From the NCBI GenBank assembly GCA_002898395.1, contig BEHE01000029.1:1-12023 (forward strand): 12,023 nt of DNA, given 5' to 3'. The notes below the pieces were generated by a model. The model was not told the origin of the DNA and made no database searches. It worked only from the letters and a program-made list of their open reading frames with translations. The translations under genes and the position numbers were made by a program. The number at the start of each line of letters is the position of its first letter. Within the stretch, counting starts at the first letter, position 1. This document shows positions 337 to 12,023 of the stretch, in pieces. The stretch is from Candidatus Calditenuaceae archaeon HR02 (lineage in GTDB: Archaea; Thermoproteota; Nitrososphaeria_A; Caldarchaeales; Calditenuaceae).

Positions 337-556
337 TCTTGGAGCCTGAAAGTAGCAGCCATGCTGACTGCCGCCGTCGTAGCGAAGTACCTGCTGTTGG
401 CATTGATTCTCCAGACGGTGATGTGAGAGGTGTTTCCGGTGGGCCACCTGACGGAGCAGTGGTGGATACTCAACGATAGGAGGAAGCAGGTGAATATATC
501 CAGAGACGGGATGGAGAATGCTGGAAGCACTGCTTACAGTAATACCGGTGAAGGTG

Positions 557-1402
557 ATGAAGTGGGGGATGAAGCTTAGAGACCTTGAGCTGAGGATGAT
601 ACTATACGAGGAAGTTAGGAGACTACGAGCCGAGGGGAAGACTTACAGCCAGATACAGAGAATTATCTACGAGAGACACGGAGAATGGCTTTCAAAATCT
701 ATTATAAGCTATTGGTGTCGTAGATGCCATACGCCTGATAAGAAAGGCCTAGGGAGACCTAGAGAAGACCAGAGACTAAACAGAATAACCATATGCTCAG
801 AGCTGGCGTACGTCATAGGCGCCAAGCTTGGCGACGGCTACGAGAAGCTCGAAGGCGAGTATAGATACACAATAGTCCTTGCGGTTAAGGACTACGACTT
901 CGCCGAGGAGTTCGGAAGATGCGCAGCAATAACTTTTGGTAGAGATAGACCATACAAGCCACGCTGGGATAAATATCTCAAAAGATGGGTAGTGAAGGTT
1001 AGGAGTAAAGCATTGTATGAAATTCTAAGGAAGCCCATAGACATGGAGAGGATTAGACCATATATTGAACACTACGAGAAGAGCGTAGTGATGTTCATAA
1101 GAGGCTTAGCTGACGCCGAGAGTGACGTAGGAAAAGATGGACGAATAAGGATATATAATACTAATAAGCTTATTCTCGAATATGCAGCCGAATTATTAGC
1201 AAAGCCGGGAATACATTCAAAAATTTACAACAGAAAAATGAATACAGGGGTCATCATTAAGGAGCGCTATTACTTGAGGAGAAAGTCGATTTGCTATGTT
1301 TTGCAAATCCATCAAAAAATCAGTATAATGAGGTTCAAAGACCTCATAGGATCGTCTATCAAAAGGAAGCAGATTAGATTAGGAAAACTAAATGACGCCT
1401 AG
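557..1402 (+). CDS. Free-standing double-motif LAGLIDADG homing-endonuclease-like protein with an N-terminal helix-turn-helix
   Basis: Motif 1 is ELAYVIGAKLGDG (~799-837) and motif 2 is MFIRGLADAES (~1091-1123). The N-terminus is HTH-like (LRAEGKTYSQIQRIIYERHGEWLSKSIISYW). There are no intein splice residues and no flanking host gene. The start is probably ATG557 or ATG569, each preceded by GGTGA; the ORF track begins at 518. Confidence 0.88.
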   Translation: MKWGMKLRDLELRMILYEEVRRLRAEGKTYSQIQRIIYERHGEWLSKSIISYWCRRCHTPDKKGLGRPREDQRLNRITICSELAYVIGAKLGDGYEKLEGEYRYTIVLAVKDYDFAEEFGRCAAITFGRDRPYKPRWDKYLKRWVVKVRSKALYEILRKPIDMERIRPYIEHYEKSVVMFIRGLADAESDVGKDGRIRIYNTNKLILEYAAELLAKPGIHSKIYNRKMNTGVIIKERYYLRRKSICYVLQIHQKISIMRFKDLIGSSIKRKQIRLGKLNDA

Positions 1403-1411
1403 CCAACCCTA

Positions 1412-1430
1412 CCCCTATTTTTCCTTCTTT
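1412..1430 (+). terminator. Putative archaeal pyrimidine/T-rich terminator of the LAGLIDADG gene
   Basis: CCCCTATTTTTCCTTCTTT lies about 10 nt after the TAG stop. Confidence 0.4.
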
Positions 1431-1460
1431 AAGATGACACTAGCTTGTTAATGTTATCTT

Positions 1461-1480
1461 AATGTGGGCCGGGGGGATTT
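1461..1480 (-). repeat. Stray tRNA 3'-end fragment (end of T-loop, T-stem, acceptor 3' strand) downstream of tRNA-Ala
   Basis: Plus-strand AATGTGGGCCGGGGGGATTT vs AATTGGGGCCGGTGGGATTT at 6109-6128 (tRNA-Pro 3' end and trailer): 17/20 identical with no gaps. Confidence 0.65.
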
Positions 1481-1491
1481 TGTATCCCCAT

Positions 1492-1591
1492 TGGACCGGG
1501 CGGGATTCGAACCTTATCGGCCAGCCCCTGTGGAACTGGCTCGCGACCTCCCGCACGCCAAGCGGGCGATCTTCCGCTGATCTACCGGCCC
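1492..1591 (-). tRNA. tRNA-Ala(GGC) with a 28-nt intron at non-canonical position 51/52 (intron 1514..1541)
   Basis: Acceptor GGGCCGG/CCGGTCC-A with the G3:U70 Ala identity pair; D-stem GATC/GATC; anticodon arm CCCGC-TTGGCGT-GCGGG. The T-arm GCGGG-TTCGAAT-CCCGC is restored only by removing AGCCAGTTCCACAGGGGCTGGCCGATAA. CCA is not encoded. Confidence 0.95.
1514..1541 (-). other. Archaeal BHB-type tRNA intron in the T-stem
   Basis: Central 4-bp helix GUCG/CGAU, 3-nt bulges CG|A and AA|G, inner helix GCCAG/CUGGC. Cutting after the second nucleotide of each bulge gives exactly the canonical T-stem. Confidence 0.9.
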
Positions 1592-1614
1592 GTATTTTGT
1601 TTTTGTTTTGGTGG

Positions 1615-2415: not shown

Positions 2416-2662
2416 CCCAAAGCCACAAAACTCAACATACAGAGGACTACAATTTAACCGCACCTCCTAGTGAGGCTGGAAAGAAGAGCTGTGGCGCTTC
2501 GCAAACCCAGGGGAGCCTTTCTCCTCCTCGAGGGGCGTTTATTTAGGGCCTCTATCCTTTATCCTCCAGTGTTTAACGGCTTTTTCCATACCTATAGAGC
2601 AGTTGCGGCCGCTGATACTATGATCATACGCATGCTTCTGAATTTTGCCGCTGGTTTTACCT

Positions 2663-3127
2663 TCATCTCCAGACTTCTCTGACGGTCTTGTCTATCCTGA
2701 ACTTAACCAATGTGTAGCCTCCGGGCTTCACTACCGCAACATCTCTGTCAAAAGATACTGAGAGCGGACCCTCCACGTGAGCAGAGAGCCTCGTGCTGGA
2801 GAGTAGTCTGCCGCCGGTGTCCGTGGAGTTTAGAGATATTTCGTAGCCACCTGTTCTCGGTAGGAATAGCCTTAACTGGGCTTTGAAAGGTGGCTTACCC
2901 GTTTCTGGGACCACCTCTACTTCTCCTCCTACGGGTCCTGAAATCGAGGCCTCAATCTTTACCTCATCCACTCCTCTCCCGACGACGCTGATAGGGATGG
3001 TATATGTTCCTGCATGGTCAACACGGATATTCGCTGACGGTATGAGTATCTCAGCCTCCTTTCCCTCCCCGATGACTGGTGCATGGACAAGAAGGTCTAT
3101 GTAGCCGCTCCCTAAGATAGGTGAAGG
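2663..3127 (-). pseudogene. Frameshift-separated 3' segment of the upstream surface protein (beta-rich, Ig-like repeat)
   Basis: This frame is open from 3127 (…LGSGYIDLLVHAPVIGEGKEAEILIPSANIRVDHAGTYTIPISVVGRGVDEVKIEAS…VVPETGKPPFKAQLRL…). 'PETGKPPFKAQLRL' echoes 'NPSGIPPFRTTLAI' in the upstream ORF. There is no convincing start of its own. Confidence 0.6.
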
Positions 3128-3198
3128 TCATCGTGCCTGGGAGGTTTAGAGTCTCTGGGAGATGGGGATTGAGCATCAAAAACCCCGCCGTAGCTAGT

Positions 3199-4119
3199 TC
3201 ACTGAGCGGCATTCCCGGTAGGATGAATCCAACCCCCCATCAGCCCCATACCCATCATCAAACCAAGCATTACCCTGATAGGCGCGGTGAAAACATAGAG
3301 GAGCCCGGCAAGCCAGCTACCTGAGGTCTCCACCTCCTCGTTCCCGAAAAGGAACGTTAGTGTGCCGCCGCGTGGATTGCCTCCCAAGACGAGAACTCCC
3401 TGCATATTCTTGTCAACATAAACCCTTTCAATTGTTATTGCTAGGGTGGTTCTAAATGGTGGGATGCCTGAGGGGTTTGAGAGGGAGTATTTGATGGGAC
3501 CTTCAGCCCTTAGTGAGAGGGAGACCTCTTCGCTGAACCCACCAATCGGGACAACCTCTAGCTCCATATTGTAATTGTTGCCTGTCTCGAAAACCTCTGG
3601 AAGCTTGTTTAGAATCCTTATTGCATAGGATGGTCTCTCCAACACGGAGATAGTAAGGCTGACGGCGTCAGTGTAACCGTCTCCAGATATTCCATAGACG
3701 TAAAGCCTGTAGAGGCCGGGCTGGCTTTCCACTCCTGCTCTAACCCTTACGACGACATCAGATGGAGGTACAACCTCTGCCTTAGAGAGCGATACCTCAA
3801 GCCCCTCTCCTTCAACGACATAACCCAGCGAAACACCTCCCTTTTGTTCTCCTTCAACTAGTATCCTTAGTTCTGCCTCCTCTCCCTTAGCTATGACGGG
3901 AAAGTCATCAGAGGTGGACAGCGAGAACGGACGTGCTGCTGCTAAGACCATCTCGTGAATGGTCTCGGTTAGAATCTCCGTCATATGACCATCCGCGGTC
4001 TTCTGTATCGATGTAGTTGCCTCCCTGCTTCCCCTCTCAGAGGTGATAACTCCTAGAATCAACAGGCCGGCCACCACCAGTAATACCAGCAGGGCGGCTA
4101 CCTTGAGGAGCCTAGGCAT
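3199..4119 (-). CDS. Membrane-anchored/secreted surface protein with Ig-like beta-sandwich repeats; probably truncated by a frameshift
   Basis: N-terminal basic residues followed by a hydrophobic helix (MPRLLKVAALLVLLVVAGLLILGVI). Beta-rich repeats (VVVRVRAGVESQPGLYRLYVYG; GGFSEEVSLSL). A TATA-like AT tract lies ~25 nt upstream (4141-4157). Confidence 0.7.
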   Translation of the reverse strand: MPRLLKVAALLVLLVVAGLLILGVITSERGSREATTSIQKTADGHMTEILTETIHEMVLAAARPFSLSTSDDFPVIAKGEEAELRILVEGEQKGGVSLGYVVEGEGLEVSLSKAEVVPPSDVVVRVRAGVESQPGLYRLYVYGISGDGYTDAVSLTISVLERPSYAIRILNKLPEVFETGNNYNMELEVVPIGGFSEEVSLSLRAEGPIKYSLSNPSGIPPFRTTLAITIERVYVDKNMQGVLVLGGNPRGGTLTFLFGNEEVETSGSWLAGLLYVFTAPIRVMLGLMMGMGLMGGWIHPTGNAAQ

Positions 4120-4176
4120 GATGTCCTATTCATTGGGAGGTTTATTTTATATTTTAACGACTTTTTAGCTTAGTTT

Positions 4177-4700
4177 TCATGAATCCCGGCTGGCTATGGT
4201 CGGCTTAGACGGGATTGTTTTCAGGCTTTCCATAATCTGGTACAGAAGGACTCCATATTTCAGGCAGTATCATTGTTCAGTGGAATTCGGGGCTTGGCAG
4301 TTATGGCAGAAAATTTTTCAGATGTCTATGGACGGTTGTACCGAGCATTGCACCAAGCTCCAGAAACTACTCCTTTTCATTAAAACATGGGCGCTGAATA
4401 TCATTCTTGCCGTGATAAAAGTTGTAAAGCTGTATCCCTAAGCGGCCTGTTCATTGACTAAGTCGATATTGAGGTTTTGGGTCATGAGCTTGACTTCTTC
4501 GCAACAGCCTTTTTTTGAATGGGCTGGAAGGATGAGAGTAAACGACCACTCGTTAGAATTTTAACACATCCCCCCACAGCATGACGTCATCTACATCCAA
4601 GCCTGCCCATGCGTAAAATCATATGAGGCAAACATTCAGCCACGCGGAAACTTAAGTGGCTTTAGACGAGATGAGACCGTTTGCCTGATGATTGAGGGAA
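4177..4700 (-). pseudogene. Heavily decayed tyrosine recombinase/integrase with a C-terminal Zn-ribbon
   Basis: Minus-strand fragments appear in the expected order: SFRVAECL (~4628-4652, box I-like GxRxxE), GLDVDDVMLWGDVLKF (~4559-4603), then one frame with internal stops: YSFTTFITARMIFSAHVLMK…LVQCSVQPSIDI*KIFCHNCQAPNSTEQ*YCLKYGVLL. This resembles RHSxAT…GWxxGSxMPxxY followed by CxxC…N…CxxCGxxL of archaeal XerC/D-like integrases. Confidence 0.5.
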
Positions 4701-4755
4701 CGGGCCAGTTTTGGGCTGTATGATGTAGATCATTCATCCATGTAGGCATTCCCGG

Positions 4756-4763
4756 TTAAATAT
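4756..4763 (+). promoter_or_regulatory. Putative TATA box of tRNA-Arg
   Basis: TTAAATAT lies about 21-28 nt upstream of the tRNA 5' end. Confidence 0.5.
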
Positions 4764-4783
4764 TAGGTTAAGATTCTTAAAAT

Positions 4784-4884: not shown

Positions 4885-4890
4885 TTTTTT
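4885..4890 (+). terminator. T6 tract, putative tRNA-Arg terminator
   Basis: TTTTTT lies 27 nt downstream of the tRNA. Confidence 0.4.
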
Positions 4891-4984
4891 GGAATTCGCC
4901 GCGAGTCGTACTTGGTGTATCGTATATTCGGTATAAAGAGGGTTACTGTTTAGACAGTCACTAGACGTATGTCTGGATCTGGTG

Positions 4985-5635
4985 TTATGGAGGGGCCAAA
5001 GAAGGGCAAGTATTCCGTCTTTTTCGGGGACCTGCGGCGAGGAGAAACGGTATGATTGGGTAGACTAGTCTAGTGATTGCGTTGAGCAGGTAGGCTATCG
5101 GGTCTCCTGATTCAGGCAGCTTGTACCCGGTAGCCACCCATATCGCGAAGAAGGTCAGCGCAGCAATCACTGCAGCCACAACACGGAGAGTATTCCGCCC
5201 CCTCACCCAAGGAGCCAGTACACTTAGGTATCCGATTTTAACGGCCAGCCAACCGGCGTTCGGGGCTATGTGTTCTTCAAATGCTCTCCAACCAAGGAAT
5301 AGGCTCCCAACTCCTGTGAAGGTTAGCTCGTAAAGCTCGAAGATAGCGAGTGTTGAGGCCCTAGCCACTAGGAAGGCTATGAGGAGACCCGCCAGACCAC
5401 CACTCAACCTCCAAATGGTTACACCTGTGAGAATCACCCCCAGCACGGCTGAGGCAACTGTGAACGGGTAAATCTTCTGCCCTTCACCCTCGAATACTAG
5501 ATTACCAGCCGCATCGCGTGATGGATTCATGATACCTGCTAAAAAAGTTGCTTCATACCAATTGAAGACCACTAACGAGCTTAGGAGATATGCCCAGTAA
5601 GCGACCCACACGCCTCTAATCTGATGCAGCCTCAT
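4985..5635 (-). CDS. Hypothetical polytopic membrane protein (216 aa, about 6 TM segments)
   Basis: Uninterrupted ORF with several hydrophobic helices and a basic C-terminal tail. A TATA-like CTTATAAA lies ~26-33 nt upstream (5661-5668). No family recognised. Confidence 0.7.
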   Translation of the reverse strand: MRLHQIRGVWVAYWAYLLSSLVVFNWYEATFLAGIMNPSRDAAGNLVFEGEGQKIYPFTVASAVLGVILTGVTIWRLSGGLAGLLIAFLVARASTLAIFELYELTFTGVGSLFLGWRAFEEHIAPNAGWLAVKIGYLSVLAPWVRGRNTLRVVAAVIAALTFFAIWVATGYKLPESGDPIAYLLNAITRLVYPIIPFLLAAGPRKRRNTCPSLAPP

Positions 5636-5727
5636 CCTCTTGATGACGTCATTGCAGGCCTTTATAAGCAGAGGTCAGCCATCTAAGCCGCCAAACGGTA
5701 CATAAGAGTCCCAGAAGGGGGTGGTGG

Positions 5728-5898
5728 ATGGTGTTTGACATACTCACGTATCCGCTTAGGCTGGGAATGTATCGGAGGGTGCTGGAGTTCAGGAGAGGGG
5801 GGCTCTCATACAGGCGGATATGGATAGAGTCTAAGAAGGACGCATATGTGATCTATGTACATCCTGCGGACTATAAGAAGTCCTTGGAGAAGGCTTGA
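5728..5898 (+). pseudogene. Internally deleted HTH-LAGLIDADG homolog (56 aa; N- and C-terminal ends fused)
   Basis: MVFDILTYPLRLGMYRRVLEFRRGGLSYRRI aligns with LELRMILYEEVRRLRAEGKTYSQI of the 557..1402 protein. It runs directly into WIESKKDAYVIYVHPADYKKSLEKA, which resembles that protein's C-terminal YYLRRKSICYVLQIHQKISIMRFKD. G-rich RBS upstream (GGGGGTGGTGG). It is too short to appear in the ORF track. Confidence 0.7.
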
Positions 5899-5925
5899 AA
5901 TCTATACTGGGGGGATACCTCATCA

Positions 5926-6110
5926 AACTCTCAACAAAGATGATACAGTATTGCATGGATGAGATAAGAGAGGTAAAGGATTGGTGGGAGATTTGTGAGA
6001 TTTTGAAGAAAAGTATCGGCAGTAATATGATGAAGCACAGACGAAAACCCACCCCCGCCTCCCTTTAACCCCTCATACCTACCACATTGAAAAATCCATA
6101 ATTATTAAAA
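5926..6110 (+). repeat. Dispersed ~175-bp repeat, copy 1 (abuts the tRNA-Pro 3' end)
   Basis: Aligns with 11298-11465 plus 11761-11770. I count 17 mismatches in the 111-nt core (5940-6050 vs 11312-11422). The distal CCCCTCATACCTACCACATTGAAAAATCCATA is identical in both copies. Confidence 0.92.
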
Positions 6111-6111
6111 T

Positions 6112-6187
6112 TGGGGCCGGTGGGATTTGAACCCACGACCTCCTGGGCCCAAGCCAGGCATCTTAGACCATGCTCGACCACGGCCCC
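6112..6187 (-). tRNA. tRNA-Pro(TGG), intronless
   Basis: GGGGCCG/CGGCCCC-A acceptor, CCTGG-CTTGGGC-CCAGG anticodon arm, GTGGG-TTCAAAT-CCCAC T-arm. An AT-rich TATA-like box lies at ~6214-6224. Confidence 0.96.
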
Positions 6188-11279: not shown

Positions 11280-11302
11280 TAGCGTCGGGGGGTTTCGAAC
11301 TC
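11280..11302 (-). repeat. Degenerate tRNA T-loop/acceptor 3'-end fragment
   Basis: Minus strand reads GAG-TTCGAAA-CCCCC-CGACGCT-A: a 7-nt T-loop, 5-nt T-stem strand, 7-nt acceptor strand and discriminator in correct register. The rest of a tRNA is absent. Confidence 0.5.
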
Positions 11303-11465
11303 TCAACAAAGATGATACGGCATTACAGGGATGGGATTAGAGAAAGGAAGGAGTGGTGGAAGATTTGTGAGATTCTGAAGAAAAGCATCGGCAGAAATAT
11401 GATGAGGCGCAGACGAAAACCCGCCCCCTTTATCCCCTCATACCTACCACATTGAAAAATCCATA

Positions 11466-11752
11466 CGCTCATCTCGTTCTCATAAGGGATTTAATTACAT
11501 ATTCTCCTTAGAATTTCCCTTGGCCATGGACCCAGACGCGGTCAGGTCTGTATTCCTTACCGGAAAGGGGAGAGATGTGCATGTTAAAAGATGCGAGAAC
11601 AGGCATTCTTTTCTGAGGTCATTCCTATCGAGGTTAAGAGAGGCGTGAGCACGAGGCACCTACAGGGATACCTGTCATTCCTAGCACTATTGATCGACAT
11701 GCCAATAGGTTGGTTCAGTACATTCCTATCCCTTACGATGCCGAGATGAGCG
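11466..11752 (+). mobile_element. 287-bp non-autonomous (MITE-like) derivative of an IS1595-family, ISH4-group element
   Basis: 24-bp TIRs: CGCTCATCTCGTTCTCATAAGGGA vs the right-end reverse complement CGCTCATCTCGGCATCGTAAGGGA (20/24). 8-bp TSD AATCCATA at 11458-11465 and 11753-11760, with an empty site at 6093-6100. Internal transposase C-terminal remnant DVHVKRCENRHSFLRSFLSRL/RGVSTRHLQGYLSF. Confidence 0.92.
11526..11749 (+). pseudogene. Frameshifted C-terminal fragment of an IS1595-family transposase
   Basis: MDPDAVRSVFLTGKGRDVHVKRCENRHSFLRSFLSRLR, then a frameshift at ~11636-11644, then RGVSTRHLQGYLSFLALLI…MPR*. This matches the IS1595 HxNxxE…S…RGVSxxxLxxYL motif. The stop lies in the right TIR. 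Confidence 0.8.
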
Positions 11753-12023
11753 AATCCATAATTATTAAAAGACCCATACCTCTCCTAAAGAACCTCATAA
11801 AGCCTCTGTAGGCTCATATCGGAATCATTATTGTTGGATAATTTAAGCAGGAGAGGCCACTAGTATAGGTGTATGTATTCTTCTTTCTTCTCGTCGTATA
11901 TGCCTACGGCTATATAGACCTCGCTAAACTCGTGTCCACACATGCACCTAATCCTGAAATAGGAAAACTGTTAGGGTTGAGCATCTAGCCGTTATGAACC
12001 CATACCTAGCCATCTATCTCTGG

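Follow-up and report, generated by a model that had tools for sequence, protein, structure and literature searches.

The stretch of DNA considered here is contig C29 of the genome of Candidatus Calditenuaceae archaeon HR02, 12,023 nucleotides long and called the window below. The assembly, labelled G000, consists of 36 contigs and 1.73 Mb and is 93.65% complete. The window carries an intact, free-standing gene for a LAGLIDADG endonuclease which stands tail to tail with a tRNA-Ala(GGC) gene. In the host genome 19 of the 26 loci of this gene family converge on the 3' end of a tRNA gene at a distance of 42-343 bp, versus 6 of the 1,712 other open reading frames (ORFs) of at least 150 aa. We conclude that the family is, very probably, a mobile endonuclease cassette which docks at tRNA ends. 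The best explanation as a whole is that of a selfish docking cassette moved by its own nuclease, and we put its probability at roughly 0.6. An earlier note, made from the sequence of the window alone, had proposed such a family. The family exists, but its scale had been understated, most tRNA gene flanks in G000 (33 of 44) being repeated.

Docking at tRNA genes in the host genome

The loci were found with a hidden Markov model (HMM) of the family, built from 64 of 93 homologs and run on all six-frame ORFs with a cut-off of i-E 0.01. The rows were merged by hand into 26 loci, or 25 if two tandem copies on C11 are joined. The list of 44 tRNA genes was made up of 41 Rfam matches (one of them below the cut-off) and three ARAGORN calls, and some of its anticodon labels are unsure. 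With 19 of 25 loci, and the loci treated as independent, the binomial P is 7e-39. The enrichment at tRNA 3' ends over a baseline of other genes, on which the earlier note had made its proposal depend, is thus present. The other loci are the following:

C28:8987-9802, same strand as tRNA-Thr(GGT), 427 nt upstream of it, in tandem
C6:91983 (L003, C6:91520-92870), nearly intact with one TGA, facing a 5S rRNA gene 345 bp away
C11, the second, outer copy at tRNA-Trp
C14, a copy at the contig end
C1:95901 and C7:31096, two distant free-standing ORFs
one family match inside an ORF of 1,042 aa

Between the L003 copy and the 5S rRNA gene there is a decayed tRNA-like piece with a T-arm motif (C6:91847-91863). 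Several copies lie at contig ends, which is expected because repeats break assemblies.

The docking can also be seen in the nucleotide sequence of the flanks. The 3' flanks of 33 of the 44 tRNA genes are similar to the flanks of other tRNAs, and in those flanks that were read the shared sequence starts 0-5 nt past the discriminator base. Some of the remaining 11 flanks, by reading of the listing, bear traces of 15-60 nt. The copies decay through frameshift and deletion; only three in G000 are fully open and of full length, and remnants are far commoner. Many of the tRNA genes have near-identical 3' 25-30 bases, tRNA-Met and tRNA-Ile being the same over 30.

Empty and occupied sites in related genomes

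The congener G002, whose aldolase next to the tRNA is 87% identical to that of the window, has empty sites. Its tRNA-Ala(GGC) is 72 nt long and intronless, and there as well as at tRNA-Pro the similarity to the window ends 1 nt past the tRNA. The tRNA-Arg and tRNA-Pro of G002 are face to face across 92 nt, and in the window 1,226 extra bases are found between them. A family match is present in the 700-nt 3' flank of only 5 of the 44 G002 tRNAs, and repeated flanks are found at 9 of 44, versus 33 of 44 in G000. In G006 a remnant of 220 nt is left at tRNA-Ala. In G007 a frameshifted copy lies 32 nt from tRNA-Ala; it is only 34-42% identical to the window protein, whereas the neighbouring aldolase is 82% identical, so two different lineages have hit the same tRNA-Ala. 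Filled and empty alleles, for which the earlier note had proposed to look, are both found among the relatives.

Among 31 related genomes the number of family matches is from 0 to 58 per genome (58 in G001), at least one being found in 20 of them, and intact open copies persist in many. With these numbers and the empty sites of G002 the gene is not a syntenic single-copy ortholog. A convergent tRNA was found by ARAGORN at 16 of the 30 best matches from G000 and its relatives, and at 14 of 16 in the genus of the window. In other lineages (Bathyarchaeota, Thaumarchaeota, Archaeoglobaceae and others) a tRNA converges with 9 of 17 loci at a distance of 26-322 bp, and Rfam added no tRNA at the remaining 8 of the 17. 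Homologs of the window protein are named from Aigarchaeota and Nitrososphaerota. A double tRNA-Val in L084 was discarded as a scaffolding artefact, the sequence being duplicated around a run of N. The loci L059-L061, L071, L072, L080 and L086, in genomes of another family of the order (G019, G022, G025), form an intact and well supported subclade with no tRNA within 1.5 kb.

The endonuclease gene and its protein

The gene and its parts are:

518-1402, + strand, intact free-standing gene for an endonuclease with a helix-turn-helix (HTH)-like domain and two LAGLIDADG motifs, ORF of 294 aa
548, 557 and 569, + strand, in-frame alternative starts
584-718, + strand, N-terminal three-helix bundle, aa 23-67, AlphaFold2 helices with a predicted local distance difference test (pLDDT) of 89-97
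803-841, + strand, LAGLIDADG motif 1, aa 96-108, counterpart of the first I-DmoI motif in the alignment; Asp106 is invariant
1091-1126, + strand, LAGLIDADG motif 2, aa 192-203, with the invariant Asp199 and with Glu201 at the catalytic position

LAGLIDADG_3 of Pfam is matched by aa 190-278 (E 3e-13), and in a phmmer search of the PDB residues 9-163 of I-DmoI align to aa 94-248, spanning both motifs. Across the 29 family members that make up our alignment Asp106 and Asp199 do not vary, and the catalytic position of motif 2 is occupied by Glu or Asp; Glu201 aligns with the motif-2 Glu of I-DmoI. The AlphaFold2 model built on this alignment has a mean pLDDT of 85.5. Foldseek with the model finds I-DmoI chains with a template modelling (TM) score of 0.66-0.72 by target, PI-PfuI with E 1.3e-9 and, as distant matches at ranks 42-50, structures of WhiA. 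The fold as modelled is the pseudo-dimeric alpha-beta fold of I-DmoI type, and judged by its sequence the enzyme is probably active.

Within the first ~90 residues the model confidently places three helices (23-38, 43-54 and 60-67). This domain matched zero Pfam families, even at E 10, and in the ESM Atlas the only leads, all weak, pointed to HTH_23 and to N-terminal parts of rve and IS transposases. Going by the modelled helices, it is probably a helix-turn-helix DNA-binding domain. The description of the gene as HTH plus double-LAGLIDADG in the earlier note therefore holds for the double LAGLIDADG, which is found by phmmer, by Pfam and in the model; its HTH is likely, though without a Pfam match. 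We conclude that the window gene is intact and encodes a LAGLIDADG endonuclease of I-DmoI type, to which a DNA-binding-like domain is added at the N-terminus. The ORF is free-standing between a repeat, called X below, and the tRNA gene, and it has no enclosing intron or intein. In G002, G005 and G006 many copies are found in frames of 359-471 aa, which suggests a further N-terminal extension of ~130 aa, absent from the window protein.

WhiA of Gram-positive bacteria is a single-copy, non-catalytic regulator in which a degenerate LAGLIDADG part is combined with a C-terminal HTH. The window protein might in the same way be a domesticated WhiA-like DNA-binding factor for tRNA gene expression or processing. 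The make-up of HTH plus LAGLIDADG is that of WhiA, WhiA is among the fold matches, and the position by tRNA genes is constant. But the HTH of the window protein is N-terminal, the catalytic residues are retained, and the family is multi-copy and decaying, with frequent pseudogenes, a copy number of 0-58 among relatives and empty sites in G002. We consider such a role highly improbable.

The conserved residues also bear on a model in which the nuclease plays no role and the copies spread passively, by ordinary homologous recombination wherever tRNA ends are alike and flanks are repeated. The near-identical 3' 25-30-mers of many tRNAs would serve this model well, and so would the excess of remnants over the three intact genes in G000. 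It is at variance with the conservation of both catalytic acidic positions across the 29 aligned members and with the intact open copies which persist in many genomes, and it leaves the first arrival at an empty site with an unrelated far flank unexplained. Passive spread is in our opinion improbable.

The cassette and the spread of its copies

The relationship of the copies was analysed with a maximum likelihood tree of 43 copies, in which internal stops were written as X. It contains the 30 best matches, two further G000 copies, the G002 copy at tRNA-His and 10 of the 17 loci of other lineages; L042, L046, L049, L050, L053, L055 and L056 were deliberately excluded, being partial, distant or redundant. 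The grouping follows the genome and not the tRNA species. One clade (100/99) unites the G001 copies found at Thr, Ser, Pro and Asn, and a second one those found at Ile, Ala, Pro, Val, Arg and His in G002, G005 and G006. The window copy clusters with the C28 copy and a tRNA-Pro(TGG) copy of another Aigarchaeote (100/99). Since copies group by genome across tRNA species, the cassette moves between different tRNA genes, as had been proposed. Its spread, read from these sequences, is closer to transposition than to classical allele-to-allele homing.

The extent of the moving unit can be read from four G002 copies. Their common segment consists of a leader of ~0.2 kb, the gene and the trailer, and the similarity does not continue farther upstream. 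The comparison gives a unit of ~1.1 kb without a second gene and without bracketing repeats. The cassette is thus a leader of ~0.2 kb, the gene and a trailer of 40-130 nt, placed directly behind the last base of tRNA genes. At the tRNA-Trp on C11 an older, truncated A-type copy is separated from the tRNA by a B-type copy, an order which implies that new copies are added next to the tRNA.

Donor-like tRNA-end pieces of 4, 25 and ~45 nt are found beside cassettes, and the tRNA 3' ends are not homogenised. The longest is a tRNA 3'-half fragment between tRNA-Arg and the cassette in L076/L044. The shortest, 4 nt equal to the end of tRNA-Leu, lies between tRNA-His and a flank which is 98% identical to the tRNA-Leu flank. 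The piece of 25 nt is in the window and is described below. Foreign tRNA-end pieces between the working tRNA and the cassette, in these three cases, fit with copying that started inside the donor tRNA. Far-side tRNA repeats were found at none of the G002 copies, and in the window copy the far side is truncated where the contig ends. Only 21 T-arm-like motifs occur outside tRNAs genome-wide, three of them near cassettes.

The tRNA-Ala gene, its intron and the tRNA-end fragment

Between the stop codon of the endonuclease gene and the far end of the tRNA gene the window contains:

1403-1464, no strand assigned, trailer from the stop codon to the tRNA-like fragment, with short blocks in common with other trailers by eye
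1465-1489, - strand, tRNA-3'-end-like fragment of 25 nt, 2 nt beyond tRNA-Ala, with a T-arm-like hairpin and an acceptor-like strand
1492-1591, - strand, tRNA-Ala(GGC) gene, Rfam 38.4 bits (cut-off 29), with extra T-arm bases
1514-1541, - strand, intron of 28 nt interrupting the 5' strand of the tRNA-Ala(GGC) T stem, absent from the G002, G006 and G007 orthologs

The convergence of the endonuclease gene on the 3' end of tRNA-Ala, seen in the earlier note, is confirmed, with 89 nt between the two genes. The tRNA was overlooked by ARAGORN with default settings and recovered by ARAGORN with introns. G3:U70 is present as read from the sequence, and for the mature tRNA, with the intron removed, a cloverleaf fold was obtained. 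A bulge-helix-bulge could not be established for the intron, simple folding giving a 9-bp hairpin. The intron interrupts the T stem exactly at a position where an enzyme of the kind considered here may bind. In a short-word BLAST neither the intron nor the 25-nt fragment had a second copy in the genome.

The fragment at 1465-1489 consists of a stem of 5 bp with a loop of 7 nt, followed by a strand of 7 nt and an A; the 7-nt strand is perfectly complementary to the 5' acceptor strand of tRNA-Ala. When it was compared with the 3' 25-mers of the 44 tRNAs of G000 it scored 12, best with tRNA-Pro(TGG) and tRNA-Gly(TCC). This score was reached by 0 of 19,916 random genomic 25-mers, for which the top score was 10, and the extra antisense tRNA 3' end which the earlier note had pointed out is therefore real. 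It is a fragment and not a gene, because the loop is not a working T loop and U70 is missing. The fragment is nearest to the end of tRNA-Pro(TGG), and the closest relative of the gene is at a tRNA-Pro(TGG), which is suggestive only. The trailer at 1403-1464 shares its short blocks with the tRNA-Ala elements of G006 and G007 and with L044/L076.

It should be noted that in the minimum free energy fold of 1460-1595 (- strand) the 5' acceptor strand of tRNA-Ala pairs with the fragment and not with its own 3' strand (z -3.2). On the basis of this predicted fold, a read-through transcript of tRNA-Ala could misfold on the fragment.

The junction is supported by a 289-nt DNA contig from run X1 which spans the end of the gene, the fragment and the 3' part of tRNA-Ala (1248-1536, 0 differences); run X1 may be the source sample, so that this support is not independent. 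An empty allele was not seen in any DNA contig of the run.

tRNA introns and cassettes

The intron content differs between G000 and G002 at at least seven orthologous tRNAs (Ala GGC, Ala TGC, Phe, His, Ile, Pro CGG and Arg TCT). The intron turnover between these two genomes of one genus is very fast. A clean link between introns and cassettes was considered and not upheld, the intron-bearing allele having a cassette or a repeated flank in 6 of 7 cases and the intronless allele in 4 of 7. In G002 three of the five occupied and 11 of the 39 unoccupied tRNAs have introns; this is our own count from lengths. That introns shield tRNA genes is a published hypothesis, as given in the available part of its source (Sugahara et al., 2012, PMC3293823).

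Integrases and repeat X

The absence of an intron or intein host, of a transposase and of an intact integrase, observed in the earlier note, stands: no integrase or transposase family was matched among the window ORFs scanned. Moreover, the tyrosine integrase family PF00589 has 0 matches in the whole of G000, not even of Xer type, and the control was positive in 14 of 14 genomes. This is important for the possibility that the loci are leftovers of integrase-borne viruses or plasmids which used tRNA genes as attachment sites, with the endonuclease gene as a passenger. It is true that integrative elements of archaea use tRNA 3' ends as targets and leave repeats of these ends behind (PMC3293823, as far as the available part of its text goes), and a tRNA-end fragment is present in the window. 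This fragment, however, lies beside the tRNA and not at the far end of the element, far-side tRNA repeats were not found, what the copies share is one gene, a unit of ~1.1 kb, and the genome without PF00589 is 93.65% complete. We regard an integrase origin as very improbable.

The left end of the window bears on another alternative:

1-314, + strand, end of the multi-copy repeat X (~0.8-1.1 kb), just upstream of the endonuclease gene; the contig begins inside it

This piece is 92% identical to a sequence on C2 which is likewise just upstream of an endonuclease copy. In C29, C2, C6 and C24 the endonuclease gene is directly preceded by X, and at C3, C18 and C19 X plus the leader precedes open frames of another kind, of 256-292 aa. 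Neither X nor the G000-only ORFs had a match in Pfam, NCBIfam or Rfam. Further copies of X are at C2:61539-62652 and at the contig ends of C3, C18, C19 and C24. X has no long ORF, and the right end of the window, 11771-11963, resembles sequence beside X on C3.

These arrangements could mean that another mobile system, for example the X repeat with the genes of ~280 aa, moves the cassettes or first placed them, the endonuclease gene being cargo. A published parallel is the coupling of an ORF 'b' to a repeat 'a' in 5 of 7 cases, in the available part of the report (Sugahara et al., 2012, PMC3293823). Against this, the four G002 copies share only leader, gene and trailer, G002 not having been searched for X directly, and the arrangement of gene and tRNA recurs in other phyla. 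Furthermore, X is 85-92% identical between copies and the endonuclease proteins ~40%, which shows that the two have different histories. Another mover is accordingly unlikely in our view.

A model for docking and movement

In the explanation which we prefer, a docking cassette moved by its own nuclease, the enzyme would bind the conserved 3' part of tRNA genes, where the HTH-like domain may read the T-arm box. As the last 25-30 bases are near-identical in many tRNAs, one enzyme reading that region would have dozens of targets. The enzyme would cut at or just past the end of the tRNA gene, and an occupied tRNA locus would be copied to repair the break. Events would persist only if they spared the single-copy tRNA, and this would put the junctions at the last base of the tRNA. 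Bases of the donor tRNA end would sometimes be copied along, and the tRNA-Pro-like fragment of 25 nt at 1465-1489 could have come about in this way. For the step in which the cassette moves by cutting tRNA-gene DNA, which is deduced from sequences, we see an even chance.

Several points weigh against this model. Cleavage, binding and target site are proposals alone. The tRNA is whole after the insertion, so a site wholly inside the tRNA would stay cuttable, and nothing was seen that would protect occupied loci. No common motif was found by eye in the empty G002 flanks. Co-conversion of tRNA 3' ends was looked for and no sign of it was seen, the 3' 30-mers of the orthologs being the same in G002 and G000. 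Of the 30 best matches 14 are without a convergent tRNA, a few having a tandem tRNA instead, like C28, and the subclade in G019, G022 and G025 (7 loci) is without a tRNA nearby according to both ARAGORN and Rfam. The 4-nt carry-over of the tRNA-Leu end could be due to chance, and the multi-copy repeat X, which adjoins several copies, might play a part.

The model can be widened to the idea that HTH-LAGLIDADG enzymes are a nuclease class aimed at tRNA genes generally, homing into any tRNA gene. Recognition of the near-universal T-arm box by the HTH-like domain would bring a LAGLIDADG core of relaxed specificity to the 3' end, and the cassette would behave like a transposon without a transposase. 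We find this tentative and rather doubtful. If it is true, repeated cutting and mis-repair would be a main driver of the rapid turnover of odd introns, fragments and split genes among archaeal tRNAs.

Relation to known systems

The enzyme class, free-standing homing endonuclease genes such as T4 SegB, and tRNA genes as targets of integrases are already known. The window protein is like I-DmoI and the monomeric double-motif enzymes of LAGLIDADG_3 in its fold, in both motifs and in the acidic catalytic positions, and also in being archaeal and thermophilic. Unlike I-DmoI, which belongs to archaeal rRNA introns, it is encoded outside introns and inteins and in many copies beside tRNA genes, and it has an extra N-terminal domain of ~90 aa.

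SegB of phage T4 is, as described in the available part of the report (PMC2330249), a free-standing nuclease gene by tRNA genes whose presence varies between relatives, and to this extent it resembles the window gene. SegB is, however, a phage-borne GIY-YIG enzyme at one locus which spreads between co-infecting phages (PMC2330249), whereas the window family is LAGLIDADG and chromosomal, sits at dozens of different tRNA genes of one genome and is more like transposition in its behaviour.

Elements with SSV-type and pNOB8-type integrases are similar in that the 3' part of tRNA genes is targeted and tRNA-end fragments can remain. They differ from the cassette, which is a single-gene unit without bracketing repeats, in a genome where no integrase was found. 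The eukaryotic retrotransposons Ty3 and Dictyostelium TRE are guided by Pol III factors to the flanks of tRNA genes, which are safe landing sites. The family shares with them a genome-wide preference for tRNA flanks, but it is without reverse transcriptase or integrase.

A multi-copy 'a+b' insertion at tRNA-Thr(GGU) has been described in Candidatus Caldiarchaeum subterraneum (Sugahara et al., 2012, PMC3293823; this and the following statements apply to the available part of the text). In it 'b' is an ORF of 813 bp present in seven copies, on the same strand as tRNA-Thr and coupled to a non-coding repeat. For the authors 'b' was a putative DNA recombinase whose source was a plasmid carrying an integrase of pNOB8 type, with tRNA-Thr as the specific target, and in that part of the text the word LAGLIDADG has 0 occurrences. 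The organism is of the same archaeal group, and the C28 copy is likewise on the same strand upstream of tRNA-Thr(GGT), a parallel by position only. A tRNA-Thr 5' fragment of the kind in their clone was not present in the G000 assembly.

A meeting report of 2023 from the same school ties homing endonucleases only to rRNA introns, as far as its available part goes. In the literature outside subscription journals, which the search did not cover, no account turned up of LAGLIDADG genes that dock at tRNA genes in archaea; the only published candidate is the 'a+b' insertion, which had not been recognised as such.

The odd introns, the breakage and the scattering of archaeal tRNA genes are an old open question, and to our knowledge the agent behind them has never been identified. 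With repeated cassette-like flanks at 33 of 44 tRNA genes in the one, only 5 of 44 tRNAs occupied in the other and at least seven intron differences, G000 and G002 provide a concrete candidate agent and a matched genome pair. Should the enzyme indeed recognise the ends of tRNA genes, a single genome would offer this homing endonuclease dozens of natural targets, a number unusual in its class and interesting for nuclease engineering.

Decayed copies and other segments of the window

The rest of the window contains the following features:

4885-6110, no strand assigned, segment of 1.2 kb from tRNA-Arg to tRNA-Pro, absent from G002, where 67 nt stand in its place, with a membrane-protein gene and a decayed cassette
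5743-5826, + strand, possible N-terminal (HTH) remnant of the decayed tRNA-Pro copy, weak, HMM i-E 6.6e-3
5916-6068, + strand, C-terminal remnant of a decayed A-type endonuclease gene, converging on tRNA-Pro
6069-6111, no strand assigned, A-type trailer abutting the last base of tRNA-Pro, also found after at least 10 other tRNA genes
6112-6187, - strand, tRNA-Pro(TGG) gene, found by Rfam and ARAGORN
11295-11770, + strand, second A-type remnant, split (11295-11465 plus 11753-11770) and tRNA-less

Between the aldolase gene and tRNA-Arg a stretch of 2.3 kb (2467-4778) is found where G002 has 60 nt; its ORFs of 102, 306 and 81 aa had no family match.

The deleted homolog which according to the earlier note converges on tRNA-Pro could be verified. 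Its C-terminal piece (ORF 5895-6068) has 63% identity over 46 aa to the C-terminus of a LAGLIDADG pseudogene on C25 (E 1e-17). For the N-terminal piece the evidence is weak, without a significant match in BLASTP. The first ~290-300 nt of the tRNA-Pro flank are homologous to the flanks of 19 other tRNAs. From these sequence comparisons the tRNA-Pro flank is read as an endonuclease copy from which the core has been deleted. Beside this decayed cassette, inside the G000-only segment, lies the gene for a membrane protein of 216 aa (4985-5635, - strand). Five congeners have single homologs of it at other loci, only 43-48% identical, and the gene may therefore be a second, foreign copy.

The repeat which the earlier note placed near 11280 is indeed a related one, beginning at 11295, but the third tRNA-like fragment marking it was rejected. 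Its score of 10 was also reached by 2 of the 19,916 random windows, it is in the reading frame of the A-type remnant, and the aligned coding sequence of the window gene is without a T-loop motif. Its likeness to a tRNA is probably a coincidence within a gene remnant. The remnant is split by an insert resembling a miniature inverted-repeat transposable element (11466-11752). The insert is 287 nt long, has inverted ends of ~28 nt (82% complementary) and is bordered by a target duplication of 8 bp, AATCCATA, at 11458-11465 and 11753-11760. Elsewhere in the genome, matches to the ends of the insert occur at roughly a dozen places, and at some of these the ends enclose a longer interior (e.g., C6:16104-17039).

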